From: Catajapyx aquilonaris
Lineage: Eukaryota
DNA length: 64,000 nucleotides
Direction: 5' to 3'
Assembly: GCA_000934665.2 (NCBI GenBank)
Contig: JYFJ02000077.1
Coordinates: 124,001 to 188,000, forward strand
Positions 9,061-50,198 of this stretch are shown here, in pieces. A program made the translations under genes and the position numbers. How positions within the stretch are numbered: position 1 is the first letter of the stretch; every line of letters begins with the position of its first letter. A model generated the notes under the pieces. That model did no database searches and had not been told where the DNA came from. It saw only the letters and a program-made list of their open reading frames with translations.

Positions 9061-11098
9061 ATGGGTTTGATTATTGCGTTGCAGCGACCGTGACCACCCA
9101 CTGGTGCATCAGTGAAAGGAGGTCACATGACCGGATGCACCTTTACGAGATCAAATACATAATAATGCAATTTGGACATGCTACATGCACCTATTGATTT
9201 GCTTAAAAACTATGTAAGATCCGGATATGGAGTCAGGCCAAGATGCAGTCATGAGTGTTTACAGCTTCCGACGTGGGAATTAGTCGCAGCTGCATGGAAC
9301 AGCCGCGCATGATCCTCAATGATTAGACAACTCGCTTAATAAATTGCAGAGATGCACGACAACGCCTTGATATTGCGCAGATTGAAAGTAAAATGGGAAG
9401 GCTCATGTGTAAATGTGGTAAATTTTTTGCAGATCTCTTCACCGCAGACAGCCAGGAATACACCTTCCATAAGCTGACCTCGACCCGGTTCATGTTCGAG
9501 GTCCGAGCCAAGAGCAATGCCCACTTGGCCCTGTCCTCCACGGCCTCAGAGGGTGAGCCCTTGATCGAGATCTTCCTGGGTGGATGGGACAACTCAAAGT
9601 CTGCCATCCGCCTCAACAAGCAGAAGCCCGACGTGGCCGAGGCTGACTCTCCGGACCTGATGACCGAGGGCGAGTACCGCCGGTTCTGGCTCAGCTGGAA
9701 TAACGAGAGCGTGAGTGGGAATATATACCCCCTATTGCTTGCCCCCATTGTGCCCAAACCGTGGGCGTTGGATTTATTCGGAACATTGTCCATTTTTAGG
9801 GCGCGCTTTGCGTGGGAAGAGACGACAGCACCTCGCCCTTGCTGAGCTGGACCAACCCTGAGCCTTTCGACATCGCGTACGTTGGTTTCCGCACCAGTTG
9901 GGGGGCCGAGGGCGACTGGAGGCTAGATGGTAATCATGCCTTGTCCACATCCACTGTCATTCCAAACTGACAATGTCCTCTTGCAGATGGATTCGAATTC
10001 CACACTGATGACAATACAGAGTACACCTTCCGCCCCGTGCCTGGAGGAGAGCTGGCCTTCAGTGTCGAGTGTGGTCATGATGCTCATCTGGCTTTGACCT
10101 CTGGTCCAATGGAGACTACCCCGATGGTGCAGGTGTTCCTCGGTGGGTGGGAGAACACCAAGTCAGCCATTCGCCTCAACAATGAGAAGCCGGATAAGGC
10201 CGAGGCTGAAACCCCGGATATTCTGTGCGAGGGGGACACCCGTAGCTTCTGGCTGCGATGGGCCAACCAGCTGATCGCAGTGGGCAAGAAGGGCGAATCG
10301 GCCTTCCTGACCTGGAGAAACCCTGAGCCATTTCCCATCACCCATCTGGGTTTCAGGACCACATGGGGATCCTCAGGACAGTGGGAAATTACCGAAGGTA
10401 TAGAGTTGATGGCCTCGCACAATTGTCCCTTTGTCGGTGTTCCCACATCTGGTCATCCTATTGACCTCCTTCCTTTCATAGGTGGTTCCGACAGCGTAGA
10501 TGCTCCCCACAGCATCTCCCATCGGTCTCACGGCACCGGAGCAGGAGTGTGGGTGCAGGGTAGCGGAAGTGACATCCCAGGTGACGCTGTCCAGGGCGGA
10601 GAAGACAGTGGCGAGGCTGTGTTTGTCGGAAGGGCCAACCACGAAGGCGACCTTATCCCAGGCAAGATCGTGCCTTCCCACGGCACCTGTTACGTTCCAT
10701 GGGGCGGCGAGGAGCATGGAAAGGCTGAGTATGAGGTCAGCTGTTCACAACGCCTGTCTCTGAAGGATCGAATTTAACTCCTGTCTTGTTGTAGGTGTTG
10801 GTCAACAGCAGCAATTACGAGTGGGTGCCAGCATCTGGAGTAAACATTCCACCTGGAGCTGTTGAGGGAGGCCGCACCAGTGAAGGCGAACCACTCTTTG
10901 TGGCCCGTGCTAATCACGAGGGCACTGTGGCTTGTGGAAAAGTAAGTTAATTTTGAATCTGGGCCGACACAGACTGGCAGATGCTAATTCTCATTTCCAT
11001 ACATTTCACAGCTGCACCCAAGTCATGGAACCTGCTACGTTCCTTATGGAGGTGGAGAACATGGATATGGTGATTATGAGGTGCTGGTTGCCAAGTAA
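9061..11098 (+). CDS. FAMeT: Farnesoic acid O-methyltransferase-like protein with 2 FAMeT domains and 2 DM9 repeats (~436 aa)
   Basis: Exons 9061-9064 (ATGG|gtttga, tentative), 9433-9710, 9800-9929, 9987-10397, 10482-10735, 10795-10941, 11012-11098; phases are consistent (1311 nt). Two copies of the motif series (N/D)AHLAL..(E/Q)(I/V)FLGGW.N.KSAIRLN..KPD..FWL.W..PEPF.I...GFRT.WG, then two DM9 repeats (WV..SG..IP..AV.GG..GE..FV.RANHEG..GK..PSHGTCYVP.GG.EHG..YEVL). AATAAA at ~11303. Confidence 0.9.
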
Positions 11099-14000: not shown

Positions 14001-14962
14001 TGCGGTTACCTCGAATCCTCACACGGACTAAAGAATACGAAGATTAAATTGGTGCTCACACTTACACCAACAGTGCTACACCGCACCCCTTCGATAAGAT
14101 AAACAAAAAGGCTCGTGAATATCTTTTGTGTAAACATAGCAGCACCTGCATGCTCTACAGGAGTGGGTCAAATTACTTGTAAAATTAATCAATATACAGC
14201 GGGCCTGCTCCCGCGAAATCTATAGATCCATCAAGTAAACTATATCTAAATTCTATATGAGACTACAAACATTGGCTCGCAATTATCCGTGACATTGATA
14301 TGGTCCAATAAAAAGCTACACACAAAGGACTGAGAGAGGAGTGAACTCTATTCTAAATTGGATCAGTTATCATCCATCCTTCTCCATCTCATTAGATAGC
14401 ACAATATTGGCAATCCTGTCACCAGTAGTTCAGTGACACCAAACGTTTCGTGATTGTCAACTGCGCAGGCCAGATCTCGATTCCCAATCCTGTTACTCCG
14501 CACGTCATATTTACACTCTCAGATTGTACGTCACAATAGCGACATACACTTTCCCATTTCTTGTCAGAGGTATATTAATCGTATAGTCAGAAATATCCCA
14601 CGAGGGGTGAAGGGGGAAAACAGCTGTATCCTTGAGCCAGTACGCATGAGCAACGTTGCATTTCAGAGGCAGTGGTATTTCCCACCCTGAAGTTGGTCGA
14701 AACCTTCGCGGATGAGACTACTCTCTACACTGCACCAGTCTGACGAACCAGCTCCTTTTATTCACCTGCCAACCTATTATTCCTCCTGATCTTCAGAGAG
14801 TTTGCCCCGATTCTGCACCAAACGAAAGGTATGGTCGCATGTCAATTGAATTTTCTGTATTTGTCGTTGCTGTCACGGTTTATGCTGTAGAGAGAAGGTC
14901 ACCACGATTGTGTGAGGTATGGCCCAGGAGACACCATTTTGAATCCAGCTTTCCTTTCAGGG

Positions 14963-16646
14963 ATGGAGGGAATTTGGGTTCCGGCTTCAAACGGACAGGT
15001 TCCTCCAAACGCTGTTGAAGGGGGTCGAGATGGCAGGGGTGTCATGTACATAGGAAGGGCGTACCATGGAGGTGACCTTTTACCGGGAAAAATCATTCCG
15101 AGCATGGGATTGTGTTTCGTGTGTTGGAACTGCGCTGAACACGCCAAGAGAGACTACGAGGTGAACCATAATAAGTGTTTACATTTCCCGCAATTTCAAA
15201 GCAACGTTTCTGATGGCCGTAAAAATGTATCCAGGAAATAGTATTGCGTAGTGGCAATGTATTTTGCGAGTGAAAAGTAATAAACATATGTCGTTTCCGC
15301 ACACAGGTGTTGACGTTACATCCTTCACGTGCATATGAATGGGTGGAATCATACGACGGAATGGTACCTTTCAACGCTGTGTATGGAGGGCATACGGATT
15401 ACCAAGAAACACTCTACGTAGGCCGAACTCAATTCGACAATACCCTGACACTAGGAAAGGTAAGTTCAATGTGCTTCACGCTAAAATAGAATTCATCTTA
15501 TTCGCAGAACTTGCAAAGTTGAATTGCCTAGTGTCTGAAAATGTAAAAATTAAATTTCAAAAGGTTGAAAGATCCCAGTCCTATACATGGCTAGCTGAAT
15601 GCGGGACAGAGCGTTTCTTGCCAGCTACAAACCCTTGTTTCACAATCGAAGTCCACTGGAAATGATAACTGTATAGATCTGCTGTCATAACTGGTCATAA
15701 CACTCATAAGTAACCTGAGTCTCATGCGATATGTCAGACTTAAATATCGTTCTCAAAAGTTGGTACATGTATAAAAATAACTAAGTGAAAACAAACGTTG
15801 AACACTGCTGACAGATGGACTATAAACACGAGTATCCGTTCCAGGTACACCCAAGTCACAGGGTATGCTACATCCCATTCAACGGGCGAGAGGTCAGCAG
15901 TGAAACCTACGAGGTGCTGGTATTTGCCGGGTATGCAAGTCATTTGAGTCCCATTAGTGCCATGTACCTGCTAATGGACGCACATTTTCCAGAGATCAGC
16001 AACCGAATCCCAGTGTCACCCTTGACGTCGATCAAACCATCATAGGCACTCACACAGACAGCAGTGCCTCCGAAAACGTGGACCCTGGGGAGGCTCTCAA
16101 AATCCACGACCCTGCATTGACCAACGCAGCCAAACAGTTCTTTCAGTGCATTATTTGCTACAGCATCCCGTCACCACCACCTCTGGTATCGAGGTGCTGC
16201 CGCAGCATATTGGGATGTCGCTCGTGTGTCAGGCAATGGCTCAGAGAACAGCGAAATTGTCCAAAATGTCGCTCTTCCCTGGAACCGGGAGCTTTCATGG
16301 AACTGGCAGGATCTAGTGCACTTCTCAATCTCCTGAGACAGTATGCTGGTATGTTTTCACATTTCGCATTTTCAGTTTTAGGAAAAAGGAAAAAGTGGAA
16401 TCAGCACTCGATGCATATCACTGTGCCTTTAAGATGCAATATTACTGACACGAATAACTAAGTTCAAATCGAGATTCAAGTGGTACACAGACTATAGACT
16501 ATAGAATAGAATACTGAGGAAATATAGCACACCACAAGTCCTCCTGTTTTGCCCTAAATTACAGTTACCTGTTCTACTGTATATATATAAGTTAAATTAC
16601 AGTACAAGTTTCTAAAAACTGATTCTTATTTGCAGAAGATGCATGA
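14963..16646 (+). CDS. DM9-repeat lectin-like protein fused to a C-terminal RING finger (~267 aa)
   Basis: Exons 14963-15160, 15307-15459, 15845-15930, 15993-16348, 16636-16646; all GT..AG and phase-consistent (804 nt). Starts MEGIWVPASNGQVPPNAVEGG...YIGRAYHGGDLLPGKIIPS, second repeat YEWV...AVYGG...LYVGR...GKVHPSHRVCYIPFNGRE...YEVLV, a linker, then CIIC-x12-CC-x5-CRSC-x10-CPKCR. An acceptor (ttcctttcag) lies 2 nt before the ATG, so upstream 5'UTR exons are likely. Confidence 0.85.
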
Positions 16647-18535
16647 AGAAACAACGCTCAACATTTACCTTCGTTGGATCTGGATTTTGCGACACCCAAC
16701 AATAAGCTTCCTTTAAATTATAGTCACAACTTGGTTGAACAATCGACGGTCATTCTCCTAACGATTAACCTGCCCTTTTTTATTTCGATCATAGTGTCAT
16801 GTACATTTATTAGTCTGTAAAAGAAACGGCTCTCATGAAGTAATGTAAGTAATTAATTGATAGAATATGAACAAAAAAAATGTTCAGCTATTTTTTATTG
16901 CAGAAGACAAATTGTCATAATTATAACCTAATAATGATTAAGTACTACCTTGAATCAGTACTGACATATGAAAAGTGGTGCATGAAGTATTACAGGGATA
17001 GTGTCACAATAAACAATGTATAACTTAATTCGAGTCGAGGTTAGAACAGGACTCCTGATATATTTTGAAAAATCCAATAAGCTTCAAGTCTCTGCATGCA
17101 ATTACAGTATATTGGTAGAATTCAGCAGCTGTACTGAACTTTGAGCAATGAAAAATAAAGTCATTGGTGACATAACATAGAACATACATTATTATATAAT
17201 AATTTATTCAATGAGTAAACGCTTACCTCTGGTTTTGGAGAAGTATAATGAGGGACAAATGCATGTCAACTTGCTGGGAGACTTTGACCAGTTTTACAAC
17301 ACGCTGGATTAAGCAACAGCACCATTTAAATATTGGCCCATAATCATTCTTTCATGCATTTATAGAGGGCAAATGATGGAAGCGGTAAATTGATGCAGTG
17401 AAAAAATTTTCCCTTCCAATCAAAAGCTTTTCCTAAATTTTTCACTATTTCTTTTTCTTTCTGATTATTATAATTTGTTAAAATTTCAATGGCAACTTTA
17501 CGTTTGCCGTATTCCGAAAAGATGAATGTACAGGGTGACTCTATAAGGTCTGGATACATAGGTAATTCGATTGCATTGTTGGTTTGCAGTTGTGCGAACT
17601 CCCAAGTGCCAACAGTGTGTATACTTTCGAACCCATATATGGTGATTGCCAGATGACAGGGGTGTTCCACCAGCATTCTTATGACGCTGTACTTTTAAAA
17701 AGGCACAGGAAGAGCTTCTTTCTTTTCCATTGTTACTTCATTACTTCATACGCTTACATGCCTCAGACTGCCCTCAGAGTCGCAGTTTCTTCGGCTCCTT
17801 TTTTGGTTCGGTTTGGCTTGTTGGGAAGCCGAGTTCACTAAGACTGAAGAAATGATGGCAGGACAGGTTTTTGGAGGGGGAAAGGAGACGTGAGAACTTT
17901 GCAGGAAATTCTTCCCACATTAGAAAATCCTCCGACCGGATCCGAGCATCGATCTCAGGACCTCAGGGGCCGTGTCTGCACCCTGCCCTTTTTGGTGCTT
18001 CTGGCAAGTATAGGTCTACAGCGGTCAATATTTATTCCTGTGACGAGAAGGTAAGGCGATTCCTGTATGCGATCTTCTGCATCATTTTTAGGCCGGGAGG
18101 AAGCATTTACTATACGTGCAATGGAAATAATCGTTTGATGACGTCCCACAGTGTCCAATACTACTCGTTTAGGCCATTATTATTACCGTATGATGATGAT
18201 TATCATCATCATCATCATCATTACGTAAAGGAGGCAGAATATTTTCTTTTCGTATAAGGTGCTAAGACACGAAAGGTGAAACATCAAAATAATGGGAGGA
18301 CATGTTGCATTTAAAATGTCAGAGCTTTGATGGAGGGGTTAGCAATTTCGAAAAACCGCTGCGCACTTTCATGCAGAAGCCATGAGAAACAGACCCGAAA
18401 CTAATCAGAAACCATCCCGAACCATCAAGAAACACCGTAAAAGACCTGAAACCTACCCGAAAGTTCGGTGAATGTTATACAATAAAAGGCATACAAAACA
18501 GATTGAAGGTACAAAGGAATCTTCTATATTATTAA

Positions 18536-26800: not shown

Positions 26801-28089
26801 CAGCAAGGCCATAGCATGTGCACCGCATGGCCCAGCCCCCAGCCCCCCTCCCAGAACCAGCTCCATCAAATTCCGTCTGGTTCTTACCGGATGGGCGTGC
26901 ACCTCTGTTCCCGCTCCATTGAACACAACCGTTAGCCCTCGTTTCACCTGGTGACGTCACGAGACCCAAAGTGACATGAATGAATGGGCCAGGAGGAGCG
27001 AATCGGAAGTGGGTGGGTGGGTGGATATGAAAATTAGGCAGGAGGATCTGGCAACATCGCAAAGGGTGAGGGGGACTGTTGTAGGGAGGCCAGCCTCGAA
27101 AACTAAGCGCTGGCGCCTTTTGTTATCTAGGCCAGCATCGGGCACGCCCCACAGCCCACCCCCTGGCCACGGCGGGGGTGGGAGGGATTGAAGGTATAGA
27201 GTTGGGAGGGAGAGGCTTCCAGGGTCGTCTGGTGGGTGGGGGGAGAGATGTTGATGCTGGAGGTGGGACAGCTGTGGAGTTGGGGGAGAGAGAGAGCAAG
27301 GCAGGCAGGGGCACATCTCATCCTAAAGTCCCGTCCCACATCTCTGCGCCGAACTCCTCCCGCGCACCGCCTTTCCTGCCTCTTTCCACCCGGCCTAACC
27401 GATTCCCGCCCTGTCACTGCCACCTGGGAATGGCACTCATTCCAGGCACGTGGTCACCATGTCCAGCCCTAAACCAGTCGGATCAAGTACTCACCCGTGA
27501 TGTGTGACGCTGGCAGGCCTCGAAGAGATGTCCAAGCCGGTCCAAGCAATCCGTGAACACACTGTGACGGGTGTGACAATCCAGATGGCAGTAGTGCGAA
27601 CCTGCAGATGAATATCTGGGATATTTACTTTCTGTATGTTACTGTTAACAATTACGAGCTAAATGATACGATCACACTTGGCAAATCCAGAGGAGGGGGA
27701 GGCAGTCACGTGAACACCTCTTTATGTCACCAACCAAGGAGCTCGCTATGTGCCATCCTCTCCTGCTAGTCAGAAATGGAACGACCCGATGATGCAAAAA
27801 CATCGCCATCAGAACCCCCACTTTCACTTCTTGGCCTGCCAATGCGGACCAGTCGCTTCCAAGGGGTTATTCCAAGGGTTATTCACTTTTTTTTTTCCTT
27901 TTTTTGCGTACATGGACTGCTACAGCGTTATTAGCTCGAGGGTATACAGTCCCGAGTTGAATGCACAAGATAGTATATGTCTTGGTATATCATCAGGTTT
28001 TTCGTCACTAATGTTGTCATTAATAAGTGACAATGCCAATGGCAATACAGGCGTCGACAAATAGGCGTGCCATCGACGAATCCTAATCT

Positions 28090-28250
28090 AGTAGTGGTTA
28101 GCTCCAGAGTTCGAATCCCGGGGCCGACTACCCTTAGTTTTCAGTGTGTTCACCTCAGGCGCTTCCAGGATAATTTCTGGGCGGTTTCCTTTCCAGAATG
28201 GCCACAGCCACTTCCTTCTTTCCCTCCCTTCTCATCTATTGTGTCGTACT
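28090..28250 (+). mobile_element. tRNA-derived SINE fragment
   Basis: A-box-like GTAGTGGTTAG and B-box GTTCGAATCCCGGGGCCG, then a body (cttccagga.aatt...ggccacagccacttccttc) shared with the copy at 46974-47282. Confidence 0.6.
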
Positions 28251-28879
28251 GGCTTAGTTACTGATTCCTATCTACTTCCTTTGTCATGGCGGATTAGGTG
28301 GTGTGGCGGGGAAATCCTCATTCCTATGAAACACATGTATGGCGGTAACCAACTTCTCTGAATTCGGCCCTTAGTGTGCACATGGTGCACATACCCTTTG
28401 GGACATAGGCACATAGCCCTCTCCATTATTATGATTTTTAAAGTAGCCTACTGGCAATGTATGTGTATAACAAGTCTTATGATCCATCCCAGGCTACACC
28501 CACACACTCTCACCTCTGTGCCATATCACTTTTATTCTCATGCGCGGTGACGTCAATGGCAGAGGGCGCCATGGAAACCATTCAAGCTGCATGATTGTGC
28601 TCCACCATTGATAATCAAGTCCCTCATGGCCTCATCCCATATAATCACAGACATACCAGGTATATTCCTTCAGCAACCGCCTGATGGGTAACGTTCACAC
28701 ATGGCATGACCTCATTGCCCATTCACACACAAAAAAGGGGGAAGGAGGGGAGTACAACTACACGCACGTCCCATCAACCACCTGCCGAGAAGGCGTCGTG
28801 AGGTGGGAGTCCCCCACCCACCCACCCAGCGACTCCACCCCCGGGTTCAACATATCATATGGGGCTTGGCGGTCGGGAC

Positions 28880-29648
28880 GGACGCCCCCTTGCCTCCCCA
28901 TGCAAAGAGATATGGCGGGGCGGGGGTGTGTAACCGGCTGGGGTGGAGGGTGGGAGGCGGCCCTGTGCAAATTTAGCCGGCTCCGGCTTGGCCCAGGCCC
29001 CGCCACCTGCCAATCAGCGCGCCCTCCAAGGTCCCCTCCCTTTGCCCTCCCAAATCTACCCCCGTGGTGGTGACGCCGCCGCCGCCGCCGCCCGCCGCCA
29101 TACCACCCCCCCAGCCCTCCCTGCTTACCCTCCTTTCCACCCGCCCTTGACTCTTCCTATTCCCACGCCAGCCTCTTCCATCAGGATCATACGGGTAATG
29201 GACCCCAGCTCGCATGCCGACATGTTTGGTCCTGCACTGCCTACTAGCGTGCGGACCCAAAATGGCGCACGGCGTGACCATACCGCGCAATGCTCGTAGC
29301 AACCCCGCTCCGCCCCATGTTGCCGCCCCTGGTGTCCCCTTCACTTGCTAGGCCGCGAACTGCCCGCAAGCAACCCCTCGATCTGGTGTCCACAGTGACC
29401 CCAGGGCAGAGTGCCACGGTCTAACCCGGGGGCAGACCCAACCCAGCAGCCCCGATCAGTGCCGACGCCCTTCCAAGCCGGCAACCCCGCATCCCCCTCC
29501 CCCTCTCCTTCTGCCCTCCCCCTTTTCCGCCCTTCGCCTGTTGGCCACCGCCCAGATGGACGCGAGTGCTCCCAGTGTGTAGGTCTGCTCTCCCGTCCCA
29601 CCCAGGTCCCTCCCTCCCTGCTCGACCCAGGGGCGCGCTGTGGGCAGC
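28880..29648 (+). promoter_or_regulatory. GC/CpG-rich promoter and 5'UTR region of the Sp gene
   Basis: GC-rich block directly upstream of ATG 29649, with GC boxes (GGGGCGGGG ~28917, CCCCGCCACC ~28998, CTCCGCCCC ~29308), CCAATCAG (~29010), AAAATGGCG (~29260) and an upstream TGACGTCA (~28548). The TSS cannot be placed. Confidence 0.55.
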
Positions 29649-30246
29649 ATGTCAGCAGTGACCACCAAGAAGGAGCCACAGGAGTACATACTGCCACACA
29701 CCTACTCGCAGGTGGGTCTAAAGACACACATACACACATAACATCGGGGAAAGCTGCGGAGGGGATCGGGGTGGGTGGGGGGTGCATAAAAGGAGGACGG
29801 GTGAAAGGGGTAGGCCGGAGGAGGGGGAAGTAGCGTCTCGCGGTGTTGCCGGATCGTGCGCGGTACACGTAGGACCCTCCCTAAGACCGCCTCGAAAAGA
29901 GACACAGGCGTGGTGGTGCAAATGGGGGTGTTTTTGCCCTTCCCTTTTATTGTTCAGCCGAGGGAGGGATGTCACTGGGGGGGGATGTGCCTTGACCTTA
30001 AGTTCACTGCGCTCTTGACCCCACCGTGTAGTGTAGTTGGAGGGTGGTTACATGTAACATGTGTGTGACTGTAATAGAGTGTAGGTAGGATCAGGTGGTA
30101 GAGCACATGACGAGAGGGGGTCGTTGTTTTGTGCCACAGCAGCAGGAGGTGCAGCCGTCCCCACTGGCCCTTCTGGCCGCCACCTGCAGCAAGATTGGAA
30201 GCGGGGCAGAAGGCGCCGTCGAACAACAATCACAACAACAGCAACC

Positions 30247-30286
<40 letters not shown>

Positions 30287-33200
30287 CAACAGCAAGTGGT
30301 CATATCCGCAGCATCCCAGCCGCAGCAGCAGACAGTGACTCTGATCCAGAACCACCACCACCATCACCACCAGCAGCAACAGGCCCAGCAGCAGCAGCAG
30401 TTAGTCCACAGCCTCCTTCAAGGGCAAGTGGTGGCGGCTGCCCAGCAGGCCGGCCCCGGGGTTGCCTCCGGGGCCGAGGTGGTGCAGGTTCAGGGGCAGC
30501 AGCAGCAGCAGCAGGCCCTAGTGAAAGCCTTAGCTGGCCCCACGGTGGTGTCGGTGCCCGCGGGACAGTTCATCCAGGTACTGTAAACCCCCGTTGTGAC
30601 CATCATAGTGACCCCCTCACGTGGTGCATGATAGCTTAGGAGGCCGGGTGTTTCATTATATACGACCATCCTCCAACGCCGTGCTTTCTTCTCTCTCTCT
30701 CTCTCACCCATCACACCGACACATGTAGTACACAAGAGATGGTGTTTTTGCCACCGTGTTATGGGTGGGGATGGGGATGGTGTACCGGTGGTATTAAACC
30801 GCATGATCCGTCGGCAGCTCCGCCCAACTCCTCCTACTTTCCTCCTGCGCTCTGCCCCTCTGGCAATTGCTGGGTGGGGCTTGCTTCATTCATTCCAACT
30901 ACACACACACACACCGTTACCCCTTCCACCCCCCACCCCCTCCAAATCATGGATCTAGGACCACCTTTTTTCGGGTTTTAATTACACGGAGGGGGGGATA
31001 CCGGAGAGGCGGCTGGTCTACCTTGGGTTCGAGAGTAGCGGTGCGGCTGCGTTGCGTGCTTGCGTTTAAATATTTATTAGGCAGTATGTGGTGACCTTCC
31101 CACGACAGGGATAGGTGACGTGTGACGAGGGGTATTGATCCGGCTGAGGAAAAAGTACGTATGTGCGTTGTCACATTGGTTGTGACAAGCACGAGGTCAG
31201 GNGGGGGGGGGGGGGGGGGGGTGGCTGGAGCGTATGCACAAAATGAGGTCAAGGGGCCATCAAGATATCGGTGTGAATCGGTCGAGCCTGGGTGTAGATT
31301 CGGTGCAAAAAATATATATATTCATTTGCATGTAATCTCGCCGACACTTTCATATTATGGTCCGAGTATTGTCCTCGGAGTAAGTGCTAAGGTGGTGAAA
31401 GTTTATCTTATTTCTTACCATGCTCGTTATTACAGGGTCAGCTTTTGTTGAGGATAAGTTAAACAATTGCACAGCTATGGTAATACAATGCCCGTGACAT
31501 GGTTTCTGAAGCTGGCAGATTATCAAAATTGCTGTAATACAGAGTTCTAATAAGCTCTCCTGGGTGTGGCATGAGTGGTTTACAATGTGTTGTATGCATG
31601 AGGGGAATCACTCAGCTGGCCACAATTCGGATGATTACTGATTGGTACCCGATACACCCAATAAGGCTGCATAATGGTCAGATAATGGTCCATAAGATAC
31701 TGTATTGGTTCGAGTTACCGATAATAATGGGACTTCACTTGAGCACTAGTGTTTGGTAGTGTCCAGTGAGCTATTGAGCTTATACGTAATAGAAACCTAA
31801 GTGCATTGACAGTTACTTGGGGTGAGGGAAGGGAGCGGTAATTAACTCCACCAGGGAAGGAAGTAGGGGTTCGGGGGATGGAGAATGAAGTCATTACCGA
31901 ACTGTTGGTTTTGTTTGCCGCATCTGTGTGAGACCTAGTTATACTGCAGCCCATCTGCTTCTGAGTCAAGGTCACTTTTGGGTGGTGCCATGCTGTTGAC
32001 TCCTTGTGCATGTTTGTAAGTCGTAAAGGCTGGTCTAGCACCACACATGTGCGGAAGGTGTTGACTTCTAGCAGACTTGCGGGGGCGGTATAGAGGCATC
32101 GCGGTCAGAGAAACACACTTGACTCACACACAGAGACAGTGGGCTGAAGACACTTGTCAGCGCGCTCCCTCCCGCCAGGGGGTGACATGTGTCGGGGGGC
32201 ACAACGGAAGTTCCGAACTGATACAGTCACACACTACCTGTAGACTATACGAGAAGTGGAGTGAAAATTCAAGGCCTTTCAGTCATTTGCAGATGGTGAT
32301 TTATTCAAGTTAATTTTCACATATTGCTGCCGATTGTTGTCATTAATGGTTTTGCAGACCTGGCATTCATTAAATGTGGATTTCCAGCAGCTACTGTTCT
32401 TGACAGGAATAGCAAAATGTCAAAGACAGGCAGAGAGTCGAGATCAATGCTTTATTATCAGTGCAACTTGTTGACAACCACCTCATCCTGTTAGTCATGG
32501 TAGTGGTATTACACATATTGTATATGTTGGAAGCAAGCTTGCATAATAATTGTGGCATAGATTTTCTTTTCCAGGAAGTTTGCTTTCCTTGTAATGGACA
32601 GGGTTGGTCCCATTATTACTCCTCTGAATATTATTTATTGTGCATTTCGTGTTATTAGAAACACTCGATTGCAAGGCATAGTTTAGTAGGAGGCAAGAAA
32701 ATATTATGAATGCAACTGAGACATTTTGGGTGGAACCATGCTAAGTAATCTGTAAAGGAAAGTCAGGATGGTGGATGACATAAACTACAGAGAGTCTGAC
32801 CAACAAACAATATTGCATGCAGGTTGTAAAATGTGGCAACCTCTTTCACAATATTATTGGCTATTGCTTATCAATTGCTACTCCCTGCTGGCTGGTGCTG
32901 CTGCCCTCTTTAGAGTGGTGGTGTGATGGGAGATGAGAAGACAGTATCATTTGCACCATCAATGTTGAGTGAAGTCACACATTTCTTGCAGCATGCACCT
33001 GGGTGCAGCAGATTAATTCGAATCTTGGGACGTGTACGATTTAGCTGTATCGTAGTCTGAGATGCTTTCACTACCTACTTACAATAATAATGTAGCCATA
33101 ATGGTATGAAATGGCTAAAGGGCCATTGTGTTGATATTGCATTTCAGATCCATGCTTACTTCAAAATTATGGTAATCTGCACGATAATACCATTATCTGA

Positions 33201-36200
33201 CGATCCATGGAATCTCTGAAATTAACTGGAAGATGTTGCTGAAATTGTATGACATACAGAAGTACCTGTTATTGTGCACAGTGAACTCAATATCAAGGCC
33301 TCTTTTATGGTGTAAAACTTGTGTGGGTTAGGATGAGCTCATCCTGAGCTTATCAATGTTCATATCATTTATGTTGAATAAGTATGCTGTAATGTCAATT
33401 GGAAATTCTTCTGTGTGAATAATGGTTAACTTGGGTATTTCCTTCTTCACCATTTCTGAACAGCAGGCTCCACAGCTGATCAGTGCTCAAGGCCAAAACC
33501 TGACCTACAATGTGCTCCCAACACAAATGCAGACCGTCACAGTGGATGGCCAAGAGGCCATCTTCATCCCCGCCATGCCCACTGCAGCTGGCCAGCACCA
33601 GACTGTACAGCAGGCAGTCCAGTTGGCTGCTGCAGGGAATGCCCATCACCAGACCATCATCACTCCTACAGGGCAGGTGATCCGGGCCCAAGGAGTGATG
33701 TCATCCCAGCTGGTTCAGGCAGCCAATGTTGGTGGGCATCAACAAGTAGCTATGGCTGCAGGACAAAACTTGGCCACAGTACGTCCAGGAGCTACTGCTA
33801 CTGCCTCACAGGTGGTTCAGTTCCCAGTGCAGCAGAGTATTCCTGTGTCAGTGCCCATATCCACCGCCAACGGGCAGACAGTGTACCAGACTATCCACCT
33901 GCCAATTCAAGCCATCGCAAATGTCATCCCTAACATTATTCAGACATCAGCAGGGCAAGTGCAAGTCATCCCACAGATTGCACAGGTAGGAAATCCGTGC
34001 ATGACATGTGATGCCTTAGCAGGCTTAGAATCTAAACTGATATTGTCGACAGTGATGAACATAAAGCTGAATAACATTATTAATCATTGAACATCAAATG
34101 TTGGATTATCTAAATCTTGAGGTGATAATTCACTGATAAATAAGTGTAGAAGTGGGCCATTTGCTTCATGGACCAAGACAGCCTGGTGTAGGGGCTTAGT
34201 TTGTCACAAGGTCAGCCCAAGTGTGATCCCAGGAAGAATGGGTATGAAGTTTTAGTTCTGTTCATTAATGGAATTAATGCACTTGGAAAATCACTGGACT
34301 AGATAATTTATGAGATGCATCAAAGTGATGAGTTGTGCATCTAATGTTTAAAGAAATGTGACAGAACAAACAACAACAAAACTTACACTCCAATGCTATT
34401 TTCAACCTAATGGAAGCTGCAAAAATTTTTCCGTTTTTACCACTTGTAAACTGTGACTTCCTTTACAGGTTCCAACGCAGCAGGTAGCACAGCTTCTGAC
34501 ACCATCAGGCCAGATACAGCAAGTGCAGTTGGCCTCAGTGGCACAACTTGCCCAACCTGTTTCAGCAGCTAGCCTGCAGCAGTTGTCCCAAGCTACAGCA
34601 GTCACCTCTGCTGCCCCCACGGCCACATGGGCCAGCTCTGCAGTCACGCAGCCCACCCAGAGTGTGACTGTGCAGGTGTCAGCCACCTCAGGTGGAGAAG
34701 TGACACAGACTCAAGCTGCCCCCACCACTGCAGCCATGGCCACTCAGAATGTGATGGTCAGTGCTTCCCCAGCAGGAGCCCAAGCCCAGCAACCCATCAC
34801 CATGTCTGGCCCCCAGGGCCAACAGATCACTCTGATCTCTGCAGCCAATTTCGCCAACTTGACAGCACAGTCTGCCAACAACCTGGCCACCACGGCAATG
34901 CGGACAGCAGCTGGGGGTGTGATCCAAGTGCCCATGGCCAATTTGAACAACCTTCAAGCCTATCCCATTCAGAACATTCCAGGGCTGGGTAATGTCCAAC
35001 TCATCCCAGCTGGAGCATTACTTGGTCAGGGTGGGACGACAGTGCAAGTAGCAGCAGCACCCAGTGCAACTGCTAGTGCCACTGCCCAACATGCTGCTAC
35101 AACTGCCACAGCACAGCTGTCAACAGTACAGGCTCTTCCTGCTGGAACACAGATTATTGGTGAGCTTTCCTGTTCAAAATGGTAATTGTGCAACCAGTGG
35201 TTTTACAACACACTTCCTGAAACTTTGCCCATAAATGTAGAGGTAGATGTAGGATACAGGGTAAAATCCATCACTAATTGATTCATCACTTTTACTGTGG
35301 CAATGCCAATGTAGTCCTGCTAAATACGTGACAGCTTGGTGACAGCTACGAGCTATAGCTTCAACCAGAGCATGGTAGTGATGACACAATGAGAAATAAT
35401 GGCGTAATGTCATTGATAAAACTTTTAATGACACTTATTTAGTACTGCTGTTTGGTGAAACAGTAGGTCAGTGCAATCATGCTGTCAATTCCATTTTGGC
35501 TGACTGTTGCACTTTGTGGTTTGCAGCAGCAACTGCAGGAGGCCAGCAGCTACAGCAAGATCCTACTGACCCCACCAAATGGCAAGTGGTAACGACATCT
35601 CAGGCCAGTCAACCACAAGTAGTGACAGCACAGCTAGCCACTGCCACTGTGGCAAACCCTCCTGCCTCCTCATCGGCAGATTCAAGCGAGTCCAGCCAAA
35701 AGACTCGCCTCCGACGTGTGGCCTGCACTTGCCCCAACTGCCGGGATGGAGACCGCTCTTCAGACAAGAAGAAGCAACACATCTGCCACATTCCCGGGTG
35801 TAACAAAGTGTACGGGAAGACCTCTCACCTTAGGGCGCACTTAAGGTGGCACACAGGAGAGCGGCCATTTGTGTGCCAGTGGTTGTTCTGTGGAAAGAGG
35901 TTCACACGATCCGATGAACTGCAGAGGCACAAGCGGACACATACAGGCGAGAAGAGGTTTCAGTGCCCAGAGTGCAGTAAAAAGTTCATGAGGAGTGACC
36001 ACCTCTCGAAGCATATCAAGACACATCAGAAGCAGAGGAGCATGGTTAGTATAACTTGTGCATTGGGCTTAAATTTTACCAGGAAAGTTTTTAAATGTGT
36101 GCAAATATTTATGATGCAAAGCTTGCCTTTCTAGGAATTTGGAGCCTCTGAACTGTTGTTACTAATATACTTCTCTCCAACAGGGTCAGAGCACCCCATC

Positions 36201-40195: not shown

Positions 40196-42612
40196 TCAAG
40201 ATTTAACCAAGACTTTCCAGTCTTCCTTGATAAGATCAGAACCCTTCTCACCAATCATAGTTGTAGCTGCTGCAGTATTTCCGGAGGGAATAAATGGCAT
40301 GACTGAGGCATCCACCACTCTCAACCCTATCACGCCTTTGACCCTGAGCCTGGAGTCAACCACTGCAGTGCTGTCACTACTAGGTCCCATTTTGCAGGTT
40401 CCACTAAAATGGTGTTCGGTCAGAGTGTACTCCCTCAGTTGGCATTCCCAGTATGGGTCGGAGAAAAACTCCAGATGGCGGCAGGCAGGAAATGGCAAGG
40501 GCCAATAGGTGGAGTTGAGCCTCTGAAATGGGCTTGTTTGGCTCATCTTTATGGAAAGTTTTATCCCATCGATCAAGACCTGGATATCGTCAGGGTGGGC
40601 CAAGTAGTTGGCATGTATGAGTGGTAGAGCACGTGGATCAGCACTTGCAAGGGTGATATTCCCAACACTTTTTGGATGCAAGATCATGGGCAACACACTC
40701 CAGGTTTCAAATTTTCTCAAAGGTTTAAACACACTATTGAACAGATCCTCTGATATTCCATGAGCCCTGTAGAGGTGGCCAAAGTCCGAAGCAATGGATC
40801 CAGATGCAAAATGAAACTGAAGATCTGGAGGTCCAGATCGGTTGGCCAGAGATGAATGTACCCAAGCAATTCCTTCCACACCACCAGGGAGAGTGAATGC
40901 ACCTGAACGTGACTGAAGCCATTCAACAAGGTCAGACATTCCATAGCGGTTCACATTCCAAGACATGGGGTTGTTGATCACAAAGTTGACCCCTCCACTT
41001 GATATGTGGTCCTGAAGATATCAAAAAAATAATTCAATTGGTCAGGTTTTTCATCCTTCTACTGACTCGTGCGCTGTACATGTTACAACATCAGGGTAGG
41101 TTAGTTGAATATGGAGCTACACCTACTGATTTATAGCCTCGTACATGATTACCATGCATCAAACATTTTTCTAGTTTTCCACAATCTGCCCTACGAGACC
41201 TTTCTCTATGTATTTTTCTGCACTCCTAATACCTCATTTCCCAGAGAAATGCCAACTTCTTGTACAAGTTTATCAAGTGTCATCAGCCACATTTTCTTTT
41301 CTTTTCTTTTTGAAGCTTACCTGCAGGTTCTGTCCAACCCCTGGAGAGTGATGCACCAGACCAATACCAACCCTCTTGAGTTGTTCCTTGTCACCAATCC
41401 CTGAGAGCATCAACAACTTTGGTGACATCAATGCTCCAGCACACAGTATCACCTCCATCCTGGCCCTGACAGTTCTCACCACCCCACCCTTCTTGAGCCT
41501 GACCCCTCTAGCCACAAGCCCTTTGAACAACACTTGTTGAACTTCAGCCTTCTTGGTCACATGGAGGTTGGGCCTGAAGCGGACTGGACGCAAAAACGCC
41601 TTGCTGTTGCTCCATCGTTCACCATTCTTTACAGTGGTCTGAGGCTTCATGAACCCAGCTTGTGACTCTCCATTTCCATCCACAATTTCATAGCCCATTT
41701 CTGACGCCGACTCCCTGAATGCCGATGCCAATGGAGTCTCCCATTTTGTTTGTTGCACAGGGAGAGGGCCACCTCTTGAGTGGTATGGTGTTGCGGCAAA
41801 AGTAGCATCCAAATTATTCTCTGATTTTAGGAAGTAAGGAAGAACTGAGTTGTAGTCCCAGCCAGGATTGCCCAGGGAAGCCCATCCATCATAATCATGC
41901 TTGTTGCCACGCACATACAACATGTAGTTCAGCAGCGTGCCACCTCCCATGCCTTTCCCTGAAACATATGATTTTTCTGTTTAGTACCTTAAATACAAAT
42001 ATCTATATTGGCTTGATTAGTGTCCACCTTTTTTTTCTGCACTGAAACCTTGTTCTCCTGTACTTTTAGTTATCTAAGAGAGACAGTTTTCAAAAACAGT
42101 ACAGTTGTAGGATACACATATTTTTAGAATACAAAATATGAATGTGTGTTATACAACTTCTAATTTATGTTATGGTTTTCCCAACAAATGTGACAAAAAT
42201 CCTCATTGAATAATCACTTCACCAAAATATCACCAATACCTTGTATCCAGTGGCACCTATTTCTGGCCATTCCCCTGCAGTAATTCTTGTTTGGCTCTAT
42301 CCTTAGCTGCCAATCATAATTGGTGTTTGCTAGAAGCGATGGCAGAACTGGCACCTCTGACACCATGGACTCCTCTGAGCCTGCTTCAATCAGCAGAACA
42401 TTCCAATTTTTTATCTCGGTCAGTCTCCTTGCCAAAACACAACCAGCAGCACCTGCACCCACTATCACAAAGTCGTACTCGGGAAGCAGGAATATGCGGT
42501 CAACTGTGTACCCAGTTGAGTCATCAGGATTAAGTCTCTGGAAGAAGATATTCAATCCAAGAACAGCAAAGGACAGGAGATGCCCAACGGATAGTCCTTG
42601 CATCTGTGGCAT
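40196..42612 (-). CDS. GMC oxidoreductase, glucose dehydrogenase [FAD]-like (~608 aa)
   Basis: Minus-strand exons 42612-42240, 41958-41321, 41011-40196 (1827 nt). FAD-binding YDFVIVGAGAAGCVLARRLTE, GKGMGGGTLLNYMLYVRGN, EVILCAGALMSPKLLMLSGIG, VGQNLQDH, HHFSGTCKMG and LRVVDASVMP..PSGNT; hydrophobic N-terminus. Confidence 0.93.
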
Positions 42613-43303
42613 GTTCACCGAAAGTGAAGCAAACGAATGGTGTTACTGTTGTTACTGCAAGAGTGTCCTAATCAAGATAATCCTCCACAAAAAATACTCA
42701 CATAATGCAGTAAAGGTCACATCTTTCACTCCCCCTCCAACTGCTTCTTCTTTTTTTATCACCACGCAATTTTTTTTGCCTACCCTCACTTCCTTTTGTC
42801 AGCGCAAGTACATCACTTTTCATCTTTCAAAGAAAAATATCTGCCTTGCATAACGCCACTACTCCATCACACATGCCAATAAAGAGATCTGTCATTTTGC
42901 AAGAAAATGTTGAGCAAAAAGTTCCATGTCAAGGTACAATTTCTACCCAGTTGACCACACATTTTTTTTTGATATTCCATTGTAAACTTCTTTAAACCCC
43001 TGAATTTTGCAGGCCTTATAATTATTACTTATGCAAGTGGTAATCTTTGATCCAAGGCAATATCTGAGTACCTGAAGGGTGTGGCCTTTTTACAGGAAGT
43101 AGCAGAGCAATATTACATAAGCATTTTAATTATTGTCTGGTGGGAAGTAGTGATAAAATCCCGTGAGTGCAATTTTCACATTTATTTTTTCTGGGGCTGC
43201 ATTTTTATGATACAGGCAGGAAACTGTACAGAGCAAACCAAACCAACTACAGTTTGACATGCCTTTTTATTAATCTACACTTGACTTAACAAGTAATTTG
43301 TAT

Positions 43304-46300: not shown

Positions 46301-49300
46301 ATCAACATGTATGTAGTACTACTTTTCCCCGAAGTATGGCAGTAGGGTGCTGAGGAGAGCCTATGGCCAACTGGGTGGAGGAGGGGGTGGGGAGGGGAGC
46401 AGGGTTGCCAAAATTTGGCAACAGGTCTGCTTATAGTGTTGTAGAATGTACATATGAGGTCATGCAGAGGAATGGCATGTCTGCCAGGTCATTTCATACA
46501 GTGTGTTTGAAGATCATTACCTTAGTAACCTAGATAATGTACCTAGACTTCAATTGATTGTCTAGAACCCTTCAACAATCCCCCGAAGTGATGGTACATT
46601 AAATTTCTGCACCATGTCTAATTTTGTTGTGCCCATGAAAATGTTTCTGCCTAAGTATCTGGAGGTGAATTGAATAATGCATGAAAATAAGGTGTGTGAT
46701 GCAAGTCGATCATGATTTGTTCATATTCCCATGGCAACTTATTACAATGTGATTTAATAACCAGTTGTGCTGGCTGTTGCACCATGGCTGCACCTCCTCA
46801 AGAGGAGATACAACAAGATCTCAATCCCTTTCCATTCCAAATCTAGCAGTATTTTTTCAGGCAGGAGGGGATGATAAGCCAAAATGTAAACNCCCCCCCC
46901 CCCCCAAATTTTCTGAATGACCTTCTCCTGCAATAATACAGTAGCACTCCTATTATCTGACTCCTCTACTGAAGCAGTTTGGAGGAAGGGATATGGTGTC
47001 AGACTGCTAATCGGGAGGTCCTAGGATCAAATCCCGGGGCCGGCAACTCTGACCGTGGTTTTCTGTGGTTTCCCACTGTCCTTCCAGGAAAATTCGTGAG
47101 TTGCTTCCATAATTATTAGACCACAGCCGCTTCCTTCCGTCCCTATCCTTATCCCAAAGAGCACAGTAAAATAAAAGCAAGGAGTTCCAAGCAAAACAAA
47201 CTTCCCCCCTAAAGAGCCAATGGCTGATAACGGGGTATGAATTATTATTATTATTACTATTATTATTATTATTATTATTATCATCTGACTCCTCAGTTAA
47301 TCCGATCGTCCGGCTCCAGCAATAAATCTGTTTTCTCATCAAAGACGGTAATGCAGGCATACTAAGCATTTGTTTTGTATTGCATTCGTTACATTTTAAA
47401 CAGCAGAATGTGTACGTAAAAGATAAATACAAGGGGTGTTAGGAAAGTCTTTACACTTTATTTTTTGCCACAAATACAGGGCCCTTGCAGGTTGACAGAC
47501 AGACACACATTATCAATAGAATCCTCCTGGAGAACGAACGCACAGGAATCGCGGGTGTGGTCCAGACCCCCAGGAACCACTTTTTGGTGGTGCATCGCAG
47601 CTTCTGCTGGACAACTGCTTATAGTCAACAACGTTCTCGAAATGGTGTAGGCAAAGGGATTTTTTCATGGATCTGGGTTTGGGTGCTTCCACACCCGCCG
47701 TACTCCCCTGGCCTGGCTCCCAGTGACTTTCACCTAGTCAGAGCCATTAAAAAACCCATTCGCAGACGTCATTTCGAGGACATAGCAGAGCAGGAAGCAG
47801 TTGTCCAGGATGGGGTGCGCTACCCCTCCAAAATGTGGTTCCAGGAGGGCCTGAATATGCTGCCACACCCATGGTGCCAGTGCATTCGGCTCCAAGAGGG
47901 TTCTATCCATAATGTGTGCCTATCTATCAACCTGCATTTGCCATGTATTTGTAGCAAAAAAATAAAGTGGAAAGACTTAATTCCTAACACCTCTCGTACG
48001 CCACTATTTCTTATAAAACCGTAATATTTTACATTATTTCATGATTTTATATGTTTTTTGTTTTGTTTCGTTAAAGTTTCCTTTCCTCCTCGGATTATTA
48101 TCAGACCTTTTCTGTTATCCGACCATGCCTGGTCCCGTGCGTGACAGATAATTGGGGTTCTACTGTATTGTTATCTCTGGGCACCCAGCATGCCCCAGTA
48201 TGTTGCAACTCTTCTTGAATCAAAAAACCTCATTGTTTGAAATGCACCATGCAAGTTGTTTGAATCATAGATACACACATCACGCATCTTTGCATGCATT
48301 ATTATATTCACCCCTGGTCTCCTTCGCATGATCTTATTGTTACCCTGAATGAGCATCTGAAAAAATAATTCTCACCAGCATTAGCAATGGGTACACAGCC
48401 CAAATGTGTGCAGACACCAATCAGCACAAGCCATTCTGGCTTCTGGGTCCTCTCACTATCATGCTGGGGATCCCTGAGGGTAGACAGATCCACACCAGCC
48501 TCAGTCTGGATCTCATCACCTGTGCGGTGACGAATGAAAAGAGGCTTCCCTCTCCACTTGAATGTGGTGCTCTTTCCTTCAGGAATATCTGCCAGCTTGA
48601 TTTCAATCTTGGCCAGGGCAAGCACATCTGCTGAGGCTGACATGCTGCTCACAAACTCCGAAACCACTGTCTTAGCTGCATATGTACCAGCCAGAGTTCC
48701 ACCTAGAATATTGGGCCATTATTAGTAGGTCATGGTAGGTCAGTGAACCCTGTCCCTAAGAGATCCTGGATAGAATAGAAACTTGTCAATTGAGGAATTT
48801 CTGATTGGCTCAGATTCAGAATTTTCAACTCATTTCTGTCACATATGACAAGCAAAAAAATTATGGCAGAATGAAAAAACTATTCTGTAGGCAGGTTTCA
48901 TACACTGTATAAAGGCCAAAACACAAAAAGATTTTGCGTCAAAACGCCTGCCCCGCCAATTATCATTAATTGTTGGCAATAATAAATAGAAATAATAAAT
49001 ATGCCGCAACGCGCGCCGTTTGCCGCGCGTTTTTTTTTGTGTGAAATGGCCTTAAAACGACAGTTTGCATGACAATTTAGCACTGCTGTCATTCCCAGAC
49101 GGTTTAGGTAGATGATTCCTGAACAAACCCAAACAGTCCTTTCCACTCCAGCTGCCCAAACCACCTTGGGGACCACGATGCAATAGCAGAACCAAATTCG
49201 AGCGGGTAGAGAGCTACTAAGTTCACACAAAAGTGGGGAAGCCTGCATTGTGCATTCATATCTGTATTTCATTAATTAGCGGCAATGACAGACATCATCA

Positions 49301-50198
49301 CACCATTTATCTACTAATGAAATTGCATTACCTATTCATCACCATCTTCTAAACATGGCTGCTGCATTCAGAACTGACACTCATCGAAAAGTCTGTCTGA
49401 AATGCTATTTTCCCTTTGTTTTCTGTCACAGGATTGCCCAAGGGATTGCCTTTCCAATATACTCATGTCTTAGGACTACACTAGTAATTTCCTAGTAAAA
49501 TGCATGGATTTTTGGTAATCACAGGTGAACAAGAGTAGACATCGATCTATGCCACACGGACAAAATGCAAATTAAAGTTGCAGTTGCTCTTGTGCTGTTC
49601 CACTTTATAACTTGAAACGCAGTTATGGCCATGCAGTATCAACTTTTGACCATAAAGGATCACCAGTTGTTACTACACACCACTGTAACTGACTTGCTAG
49701 CCTCGAGTGCTTGTGGCCTTCTGGTGTAAATATATTGGCAATATAATCAAATGCAGTTGTTTCATCTGTGCAGGTACAACCAATGGTAATTGACGGAACA
49801 TGTAACATTGCCATGAACATTGGAAGTATGTGTGAACTGCCTGCCTCACCTCCGATCATCATGTAGGTGAAGCTCTTCCTTCCCTCTGCGCTCTCCTTGT
49901 TGACTGATGTGGGTTCTTTGGTGGCAGACCTCCTGTATGCGGAGAAATCAGGCACCTCGATGTCTGTGTGTGCAAAGCGGACGGATCCTCCTGAGCAAGC
50001 CACGGCCTTGGCAGTGGCAGGGACGTCCAGCGCCCTCTGCATGGCCCCCTGCGTAAGGATGGCCGGGACCCTGTCCAGCACCGGCGCCTTGGTCGGGGGC
50101 AGGCCAGGGGCCAGGGGCTTCGTGGCCCCAGCCACCACCTGGGTGACCGCCTTGGAGTAGAGGGAGAGGTTCCCCCCTCGGCCCAGGTAGCTCAGCAT
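43304..50198 (-). CDS. UQCRFS1: Cytochrome b-c1 complex Rieske iron-sulfur subunit, mitochondrial (271 aa)
   Basis: Minus-strand exons 50198-49850, 48702-48376, 43443-43304 (816 nt). [45 protein letters not shown], Rieske boxes CTHLGC and CPCHGSHY, ending [14 protein letters not shown]...VVG*. AATAAA on the minus strand at ~43266-43271. Confidence 0.97.
43822..44330. mobile_element. hAT-family MITE in UQCRFS1 intron 2
   Basis: Ends CAGGGGCATTCAAGT and AGTTGAATAGCCCTG (imperfect TIR), flanked by an 8-bp TSD ATCTAGGA / ATCTCGGA (7/8 match). Confidence 0.8.
44877..45619. mobile_element. Fold-back Tc1/mariner-type MITE (nearly fully palindromic) with a nested 86-bp palindrome
   Basis: TA|CAGGGTGATTCTCTCGAATGGAAACCC ... 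GGGTTTCCATTCGAGAGAATAACCCTG|TA. The arms stay reverse-complementary for ~300 bp towards a centre near 45195. An extra hairpin at 45437-45522 is present only in the right arm. Confidence 0.88.
46974..47282 (+). mobile_element. tRNA-derived SINE with (ATT)n tail
   Basis: tRNA-like head (GACTGCTAAT..., GGATCAAATCCCGGGGCCGG as a degenerate B-box), body ggttttctgtggtttccc...cttccaggaaaatt...gaccacagccgcttccttcc shared with the 28090 copy, and an (ATT)n tail at ~47240-47282. Confidence 0.7.
47430..47996 (+). mobile_element. Internally deleted mariner element
   Basis: TA|CAAGGGGTGTTAGGAAAGTCTTTACACTTTATTTTTTGC and GCAAAAAAATAAAGTGGAAAGACTTAATTCCTAACACCTCTCG|TA TIRs. Residual transposase C-terminus [17 protein letters not shown]...[16 protein letters not shown]. 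Confidence 0.88.

Follow-up and report, generated by a model that had tools for sequence, protein, structure and literature searches.

A transcribed gene of Catajapyx aquilonaris joins two DM9 repeats to a RING finger and may encode a glycan-directed ubiquitin ligase

Does the genome of Catajapyx aquilonaris encode a protein in which a lectin-type DM9 module and a RING finger share one polypeptide and, if so, what would that protein do? The question is raised by a 64,000-nucleotide (nt) stretch of DNA (NCBI GenBank assembly GCA_000934665.2, contig JYFJ02000077.1, positions 124,001 to 188,000 of the forward strand), which was analysed as a whole and is termed the window in the following; positions are counted from its first letter. 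An initial annotation, made from the letters of the window, had joined two DM9 repeats and a RING finger into a single gene, here called DM9-RING. We find that DM9-RING is a genuine, transcribed and protein-coding gene. It lies on the + strand at 14963-16646, and its five coding exons join to a coding sequence of 804 nt, corresponding to 267 amino acids and a stop codon; the predicted product is a soluble protein of 29.5 kDa. The elements of the gene are the following.

14700-14828, + strand: exon of the 5' untranslated region (5'UTR); its 5' end is undefined, 14700 being the start of the first transcript contig (run X1, contig 1)
14961-15160, + strand: exon 1, with the ATG at 14963; DM9 repeat 1, 66 codons, phase 0
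15307-15459, + strand: exon 2, 51 codons; the segment between the repeats and the first two thirds of DM9 repeat 2
15845-15930, + strand: exon 3, 28 codons and 2 nt; the final third of DM9 repeat 2
15931-15992, + strand: intron 3, 62 nt, phase 2 (GG/gtatgc...ttccag/A); links the DM9 module to the RING exon
15993-16348, + strand: exon 4, consisting of a linker, the RING finger and a post-RING segment
15993-16143, + strand: linker of exon 4, about 50 amino acids, acidic and polar, isoelectric point 4.2, without a Pfam match
16144-16272, + strand: RING finger of exon 4, with eight Cys; zf-RING_2 match at residues 51-93 of the exon translation
16273-16348, + strand: post-RING segment of exon 4 (L-x-G-...-L-...-L), with conserved columns 65, 67, 72 and 75 of the family alignment
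16636-17182, + strand: exon 5, with the final 3 codons, the TGA at 16644-16646 and the 3'UTR with AATAAA at 17154-17159

All four introns between the coding exons are of the GT..AG type and have pyrimidine-rich acceptors. Scripted joining of the exons returned the five phase-consistent exons and the stop-free frame of 267 amino acids with every coordinate as initially annotated. The same holds for the phase of intron 15931-15992 and for the stop at 16045, at which the reading frame ends when this intron is retained. Pfam places DM9 in exons 1-3 and the RING in exon 4, in line with the annotated combination of two DM9 repeats and a RING in one frame. The N-terminus of the protein is the DM9 repeat itself, and crude hydropathy (highest 19-residue Kyte-Doolittle mean 1.25) indicated neither a signal peptide nor a transmembrane segment, which agrees with the annotation. 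The leader, once spliced, has an in-frame stop 90 nt 5' of the ATG. It also contains an upstream open reading frame (uORF) of 25 codons within the 5'UTR exon (14712-14789, + strand), in a frame that differs from that of the main one. Finally, no Met precedes the RING in the translation of exon 4, so the RING can be translated only via the fusion to DM9.

Evidence that these exons are joined in RNA comes from run X1, whose library type is not on record and which contains a fraction of 0.37 of the sampled words, approximately the exonic share of the stretch queried; no run recorded as RNA covers the DM9-RING region. Three spliced contigs of run X1 align to the window with 0 mismatches and 0 gaps and skip GT..AG introns, and the data are therefore RNA-derived. 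Contig 1 joins the 5'UTR exon to exon 1, whose aligned part is 14959-15147; the leader joint was aligned as 14826/14959 and shifted by +2 to 14828/14961. Contig 2 (15368-16130) connects exon 2 with exon 3 at the joint 15459/15845 and continues across the DM9-to-RING junction 15930/15993 into exon 4. It is the sole contig over the region of intron 3 and represents the spliced form, at a depth of 5.5 and with at least 87 letters on each side of the junction, although such contigs give no isoform proportions and drop rare variants. Contig 3 carries the joint between exons 4 and 5 (16348/16636) and reaches 17182, which is 23 nt beyond the AATAAA. All four joints are canonical and in frame, and no loose ends were reported. 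The annotated connection of the RING exon to the DM9 exons is thus seen in RNA, and a RING exon that is never joined to them is not what contig 2 shows.

We then compared the DM9 half with its characterised relatives. The Pfam DM9 profile (PF11901, cutoff 26.2 bits) matches exon 1 with 5.3e-18 (65.5 bits) and exon 2 with 7.4e-13 (48.9 bits), and exon 3 with 9.7e-6 (25.9 bits), which is just below the cutoff when exon 3 is scored as a piece of 28 amino acids. Exons 1 and 2 cover the profile positions 6-45 and 52-96, respectively, which are consecutive and agree with the joining of the two exons. There are two tandem repeats, the first formed by exon 1 and the second by exons 2 and 3, each of which aligns to both halves of CGL1, also termed CgDM9CP-1, of the oyster Crassostrea gigas. 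In a search of the PDB with exon 1, the CGL1/CgDM9CP-1 chains ('Natterin-3') were the top four (best 1.7e-12) among the 18 matches listed at E<=1, the other 14 being at E>=0.04. Exons 2 and 3 matched CGL1/CgDM9CP-1 exclusively. These comparisons involve short exon pieces and moderate E-values. In CGL1, site A is formed by Asp22, Lys43, Glu59, His52, Phe126 and the backbone of Ala127, and site B by Lys114, Glu130, Phe55, Tyr123 and the backbone of Ala56, with no Asp (PMC4932603). Asp22, Lys43, Glu59, Lys114 and Glu130 are hydrogen-bonding residues, and Tyr123 and Phe126 are stacking residues. The mutations D22A and K43A abolish binding of mannose and of pathogen-associated molecular patterns by CgDM9CP-1 (PMC5712788). 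Exon 1 has D, K and E opposite Asp22, Lys43 and Glu59 of CGL1, and Lys114 aligns to the final K of exon 2. Moreover, CGL1 residues 115-139 align to exon 3, where Tyr123, Phe126 and Glu130 correspond to Y, F and E. The DM9 pair thus keeps the predicted equivalents of the Asp, Lys and Glu side chains that CGL1 uses for mannose.

The protein also has a C-x2-C-x2-C motif in repeat 1 (residues 51-57, window 15113-15133), in a place that P and GG usually occupy in DM9 proteins. This may be no more than normal variation of the loop, or else a new metal or redox site; comparable loop variation is seen in other DM9 proteins that we retrieved.

A classical RING has eight zinc ligands in the arrangement C-x2-C-x9-39-C-x1-3-H-x2-3-C-x2-C-x4-48-C-x2-C (C3HC4 or C3H2C3). 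The motif in DM9-RING reads C-x2-C-x12-CC-x5-C-x2-C-x10-C-x2-C. Pfam recognises exon 4 as zf-RING_2 (2e-6, 28.4 bits, cutoff 27.3) and zf-C3HC4 (2e-4, 21.6 bits, cutoff 21), in both cases by a narrow margin, and scores zf-C3HC4_3 and zf-C3HC4_2 below the cutoff. The nearest solved RING structure in a PDB search is that of TRIM37 (3lrq, 5.5e-5), followed by RNF8. A phmmer search of 1.84 billion representative sequences with exon 4 recovered 607 matches at E<=1e-3, with a best identity of 38% and no match to the protein itself or to a close ortholog. The pattern C-x2-C-x9-16-CC-x5-C-x2-C-x6-14-C-x2-C is common to 127 of the best 150 of these 607 relatives, and in 93 of the 127 the RING ends at most 45 residues from the C-terminus. 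Most motif-bearing relatives have a hydrophobic residue two positions after the first Cys (119/127), Trp between the sixth and the seventh Cys (117/127), Pro after the seventh (114/127) and Arg or Lys after the eighth (98/127). The corresponding residues of DM9-RING are I, W, P and R, and we take the four positions to be E2-contact and linchpin sites by reference to the c-Cbl/UbcH7 and RNF4 structures, E2 being the ubiquitin-conjugating enzyme. The eight Cys are invariant in the family alignment, an invariance that is partly due to selection by motif. All family-conserved positions of the RING and of the post-RING segment, which is probably a helix, are kept in DM9-RING.

Who are these relatives? 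Seven of the ten clusters looked up have names, all of which are 'uncharacterized', 'hypothetical' or 'RING-type domain-containing', and they derive from one sponge, five teleosts and one hydrozoan; ten further clusters are nameless. Examples are XP_062511056.1 (Corticium candelabrum), XP_059183660.1 (Centropristis striata) and XP_057292813.1 (Hydractinia). The relatives are mostly short, have no Pfam domain ahead of the RING and are often multi-copy, with 10 members in one Hydractinia cluster. Judged by these alignments, the RING of DM9-RING is a member of a distinct, unnamed metazoan eight-Cys subfamily, for which there is no specific Pfam family. Two of the relatives, P0069 and P0132, have TAZ and KIX domains (CBP/p300-like) ahead of the C-terminal RING, which is either an odd architecture or a fusion of gene models.

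What would a protein with these two halves do? Reading DM9-RING as a lectin-E3, in which DM9 recognises glycan targets and the RING ubiquitinates them as a ubiquitin ligase (E3), is the best-supported mechanism, because both halves keep residues that their characterised relatives need; we give it about even chances. The two DM9 repeats would form one pseudo-twofold lectin domain with two mannose pockets at the interface between the repeats, as in CGL1. This domain would serve for target recognition by binding glycans of mannose type or of microbial origin once these reach the cytosol, candidate targets being invading microbes, ruptured vesicles and retro-translocated glycoproteins. The RING would recruit a charged E2, and ubiquitin would be placed on the bound target, on its neighbour or on the DM9-RING protein itself. 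We infer sugar binding, E2 recruitment, the substrates and the cellular and immune role of the protein from its sequence. A more specific version, which we put forward as tentative, is a single-polypeptide cytosolic pattern-recognition ubiquitin ligase, whose DM9 module docks on cytosol-exposed mannose-rich or microbial glycans and whose eight-Cys RING builds ubiquitin there. Its targets may be invading microbes, ruptured phagosomes or lysosomes and glycoproteins of endoplasmic reticulum-associated degradation. An intracellular location has precedents among DM9 proteins: AgPRS1 (PMC2902509) and FgDM9-1 (PMC8106982) are cytoplasmic, and CgDM9CP-6 is reported to be an intracellular pattern-recognition receptor (PMC12379375). 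The initial annotation had described DM9 proteins as mannose-binding or immune-associated, and the literature bears this out in that DM9 proteins are documented mannose lectins, several of them cytoplasmic (PMC4932603, PMC5712788, PMC12379375, PMC8106982, PMC2902509).

Is DM9-RING the only protein of its kind? The initial annotation knew of no described DM9+RING architecture, and none was found here either, in partial searches. DM9 was found in 0/150 of the best 150 RING relatives at E<=1e-5. A word-index search of longer proteins gave no score among 163 candidates for the RING exon; for the DM9 of exon 1 it gave three matches among 19 candidates, all of which are four-DM9 proteins without a RING. 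The RING-family profile, run against proteins of 334-2000 amino acids, a range outside which the 267-amino acid class falls, had a single match, P0165, which is without a Pfam domain. In the protein atlas (clusters of at least 50 members), RING families are absent from the 30 nearest named DM9 clusters. The nearest DM9 clusters are commonest in Arthropoda, and the RING exon led to generic RING clusters. A metagenome scan with the RING exon produced 308 pattern matches, of which 0 were confirmed. No paper on DM9 together with RING was found in a literature search that did not cover supplements such as Table S3 of PMC5712788 (477 DM9 proteins). The text of that survey of 477 DM9 proteins names only fusions to ETX/MTX2 and to FAMeT (PMC5712788). 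What is new here is a type of DM9 fusion, and a RING with a new recognition module.

The window itself suggests where the DM9 exons came from, since a second gene with a DM9 pair is found 3.6 kb upstream of DM9-RING on the same strand.

9327-11098, + strand: FAMeT-like gene with two Methyltransf_FA domains (PF12248, 1.5e-24 and 3.8e-37) and a DM9 pair (2.2e-18); start codon and 5' exons undefined

The DM9 exons of the FAMeT-like gene break at the same codon positions as exons 1-3 of DM9-RING (...YE/V, ...GK/, then (L/V)HPSH...YEVLV), and the two DM9 modules are identical at 66 of 143 residues (46%). The terminal exon of the FAMeT-like gene ends GCC AAG TAA and exon 3 of DM9-RING ends GCC GG/gt, which means that the stop codon appears to have been replaced by a splice donor in DM9-RING. 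This suggests that DM9-RING was born by an old partial duplication of the DM9 exons of its neighbour and by capture of a RING exon. Identity between the two modules is 59%, 66% and 36% at codon positions 1, 2 and 3. The number of substitutions per nonsynonymous site (dN) is 0.54 and that per synonymous site (dS) about 3, which is saturated; the ratio of about 0.18 averages two lineages and presupposes that the DM9 modules are paralogous. In neutral simulations of the DM9 module, the frame remained stop-free in only 0.3-2.9% of the runs. The codon pattern, dN/dS and the simulations fit an old duplication that has been kept under constraint. A search for direct or inverted repeats around the RING exon found none and hence gave no transposon signature, and no second copy of the RING was found within the 64-kb window. 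We also asked whether the FAMeT-like exons might be spliced into exon 1 and discarded the idea, as joining the phase-0 donor at 10735 to the acceptor at 14961 would put the sequence out of frame and lead to an early stop.

Several points weigh against the reading of DM9-RING as a lectin-E3. In the DM9 half, the sugar loop of repeat 1 deviates from CGL1 at His52 (F), Pro54 (C), Phe55 (W), Ala56 (N) and Gly57 (C), and the Asp of repeat 2 is displaced by one residue in the ungapped alignment with CGL1. Moreover, known lectin activity does not extend to all DM9 proteins, and the FAMeT-like DM9 pair has no assigned role. The RING is without His; its putative ligands 3 and 4 are adjacent Cys with a gap of 5 residues to ligand 5, and just one of the two adjacent Cys meets a Cys of TRIM37 in the alignment. 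The eight-Cys subfamily is atypical and includes no member with a known function among the named relatives. Expression of the gene rests on three contigs from one run of unrecorded library type, and the joint between exons 1 and 2 (15160/15307) falls between contigs and is the sole joint not covered. The constraint on the DM9 module counts here as well, given the two-lineage average and the presupposed paralogy. Finally, searches that were partial and did not include arthropod genomes or InterPro found neither an ortholog nor a second DM9+RING protein, and the fusion may therefore be young and lineage-specific.

This last point leads to the alternative that survives best, although we consider it unlikely: DM9-RING might be a young, lineage-specific chimera made by exon shuffling, a gene that yields a spliced transcript without a selected lectin-E3 function or that is decaying. 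The failure to find an ortholog or a second DM9+RING protein fits this, as does the absence of its own protein from the 1.84-billion-representative library, where the best match has 38% identity. The substitutions in repeat 1 at loop positions that are usually conserved in DM9, and the uORF in the transcript leader, point in the same direction. However, neither the frame of 267 codons nor any splice site is damaged, and the family-conserved RING positions as well as the post-RING segment are all kept. The codon-position pattern and the low neutral stop-free fraction speak in favour of purifying selection in the DM9 module, and missing orthologs are weak evidence when arthropod genomes lie outside the searches.

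Alternatively, the DM9 pair might be a protein-protein module that pairs with FAMeT-like or other DM9 proteins, and the RING might ubiquitinate those partners, which we regard as rather improbable. The proximity of the FAMeT-like gene on the same strand, with identical intron positions in DM9, would suit such a partnership, and interactions of this kind are documented: CGL1 forms homodimers (PMC4932603), FgDM9-1 has a tendency towards oligomers (PMC8106982) and 14-3-3 is bound by CgDM9CP-6 (PMC12379375). Yet the residues at the dimer interface of CGL1 are reported not to be strongly conserved (PMC4932603), and DM9-RING has kept sugar-binding side chains that a pure protein adaptor would not need. 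That the gene mainly yields a DM9-only protein, through retention of intron 3 and the stop at 16045, is very improbable; the DM9-RING RNA would then be a minor isoform arising by read-through or chimerism, or the contigs would be misleading. Two-DM9 proteins of about 145 amino acids are the common form, the single run is not recorded as RNA, and isoform proportions are beyond contigs from which rare variants are dropped. However, the sole contig over the region is spliced at the depth and with the flanks given above, each of the four joints seen is canonical and keeps the frame, no loose ends were reported, and the RING exon lacks its own start codon.

The remainder of the window contains features of other kinds.

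33419-36134, + strand: Sp-like C2H2 zinc-finger factor with Q-rich exons
40196-42642, - strand: GMC oxidoreductase
48308-50213, - strand: Rieske/UCR_TM subunit
58125-58604, + strand: exon with a BTB domain
61718-62281, + strand: remnant of a DDE_3 transposase

Three observations suggest that the DNA is that of an arthropod: the presence of a FAMeT-like gene with DM9, a GMC oxidoreductase and a BTB exon in the window, the predominance of Arthropoda in the nearest DM9 clusters, and the FAMeT+DM9 fusions reported in insects (PMC5712788). A GC-rich island with long repeats coding for poly-Q and poly-A occupies 28000-31000, where GC reaches up to 58% as compared to about 40% elsewhere. Three positions of the window are N, one of which (31202) lies just past the island. 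Neither Rfam families nor tRNAs were found in the window.

How does DM9-RING compare with known systems? The best PDB match of its DM9 half, CGL1/CgDM9CP-1 of Crassostrea gigas (PDB 5id8, 5mh1), likewise has two DM9 repeats and is leaderless, but it is a DM9-only protein of 143 amino acids, to which DM9-RING adds a linker and the RING. Anopheles PRS1, Fasciola FgDM9-1 and oyster CgDM9CP-6 are leaderless two-DM9 proteins that act inside cells (PMC2902509, PMC8106982, PMC12379375), and cytoplasmic DM9 proteins move to vesicles upon infection or stress, or signal via 14-3-3 to NF-kB (same sources). PRS1, FgDM9-1 and CgDM9CP-6 have no effector domain of their own, whereas in DM9-RING a RING is covalently attached. 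FAMeT-like proteins (two Methyltransf_FA and two DM9) share with DM9-RING the three-exon structure of DM9, its phases and 46% identity, and FAMeT+DM9 is a known fusion type in insects (PMC5712788). In contrast to them, DM9-RING is without the Methyltransf_FA domains and has a splice donor that leads to the RING exon where their terminal DM9 exon has its stop codon. With the eight-Cys RING subfamily it shares C-x2-C...CC-x5-C-x2-C...C-P-x-C-R, the post-RING L-x-G-...-L and a RING near the C-terminus.

On the ubiquitin side, a review of sugar-recognising ubiquitin ligases treats only F-box proteins and the galectin-3/TRIM16 pair (PMC6389600). SCF-Fbs1/2/3 (FBXO2, FBXO6, FBXO27) and plant F-box-Nictaba use a cytosolic lectin to direct ubiquitination to misplaced glycans (PMC6389600), which is the logic proposed for DM9-RING. 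The analogy is a functional one only: Fbs and Nictaba proteins are F-box adaptors that need SKP1-CUL1-RBX1 and have an unrelated sugar domain, whereas DM9-RING is one chain. No F-box or FBA match was found in the four exon translations, where Pfam at E<=1 returned only DM9 and RING families. Galectin-3 and TRIM16 couple a lectin that reads damaged endomembranes to a RING ligase (PMC6389600). These are two proteins that associate non-covalently, one with a galectin fold and the other with a TRIM architecture, whereas DM9-RING is a single polypeptide with a non-TRIM RING, which is C-terminal; a B-box was without a Pfam match in the exon translations.

The case is limited to one gene in one genome. 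If it is a lectin-E3, DM9-RING would be an arthropod counterpart of SCF-Fbs3 or galectin/TRIM16, built by exon shuffling from FAMeT-like DM9 exons and an orphan RING. It would also be the first of its type among lectin-RING fusions and offer the first functional handle on the eight-Cys RING subfamily. The locus further illustrates the birth of a gene by partial tandem duplication, with a stop codon apparently replaced by a splice donor. Evidence is growing that DM9 proteins sense microbes inside cells, but few of their links to downstream effectors are known (PMC12379375, PMC2902509), and a DM9 module that is wired directly to a RING predicts that ubiquitination would lie downstream of DM9 recognition.

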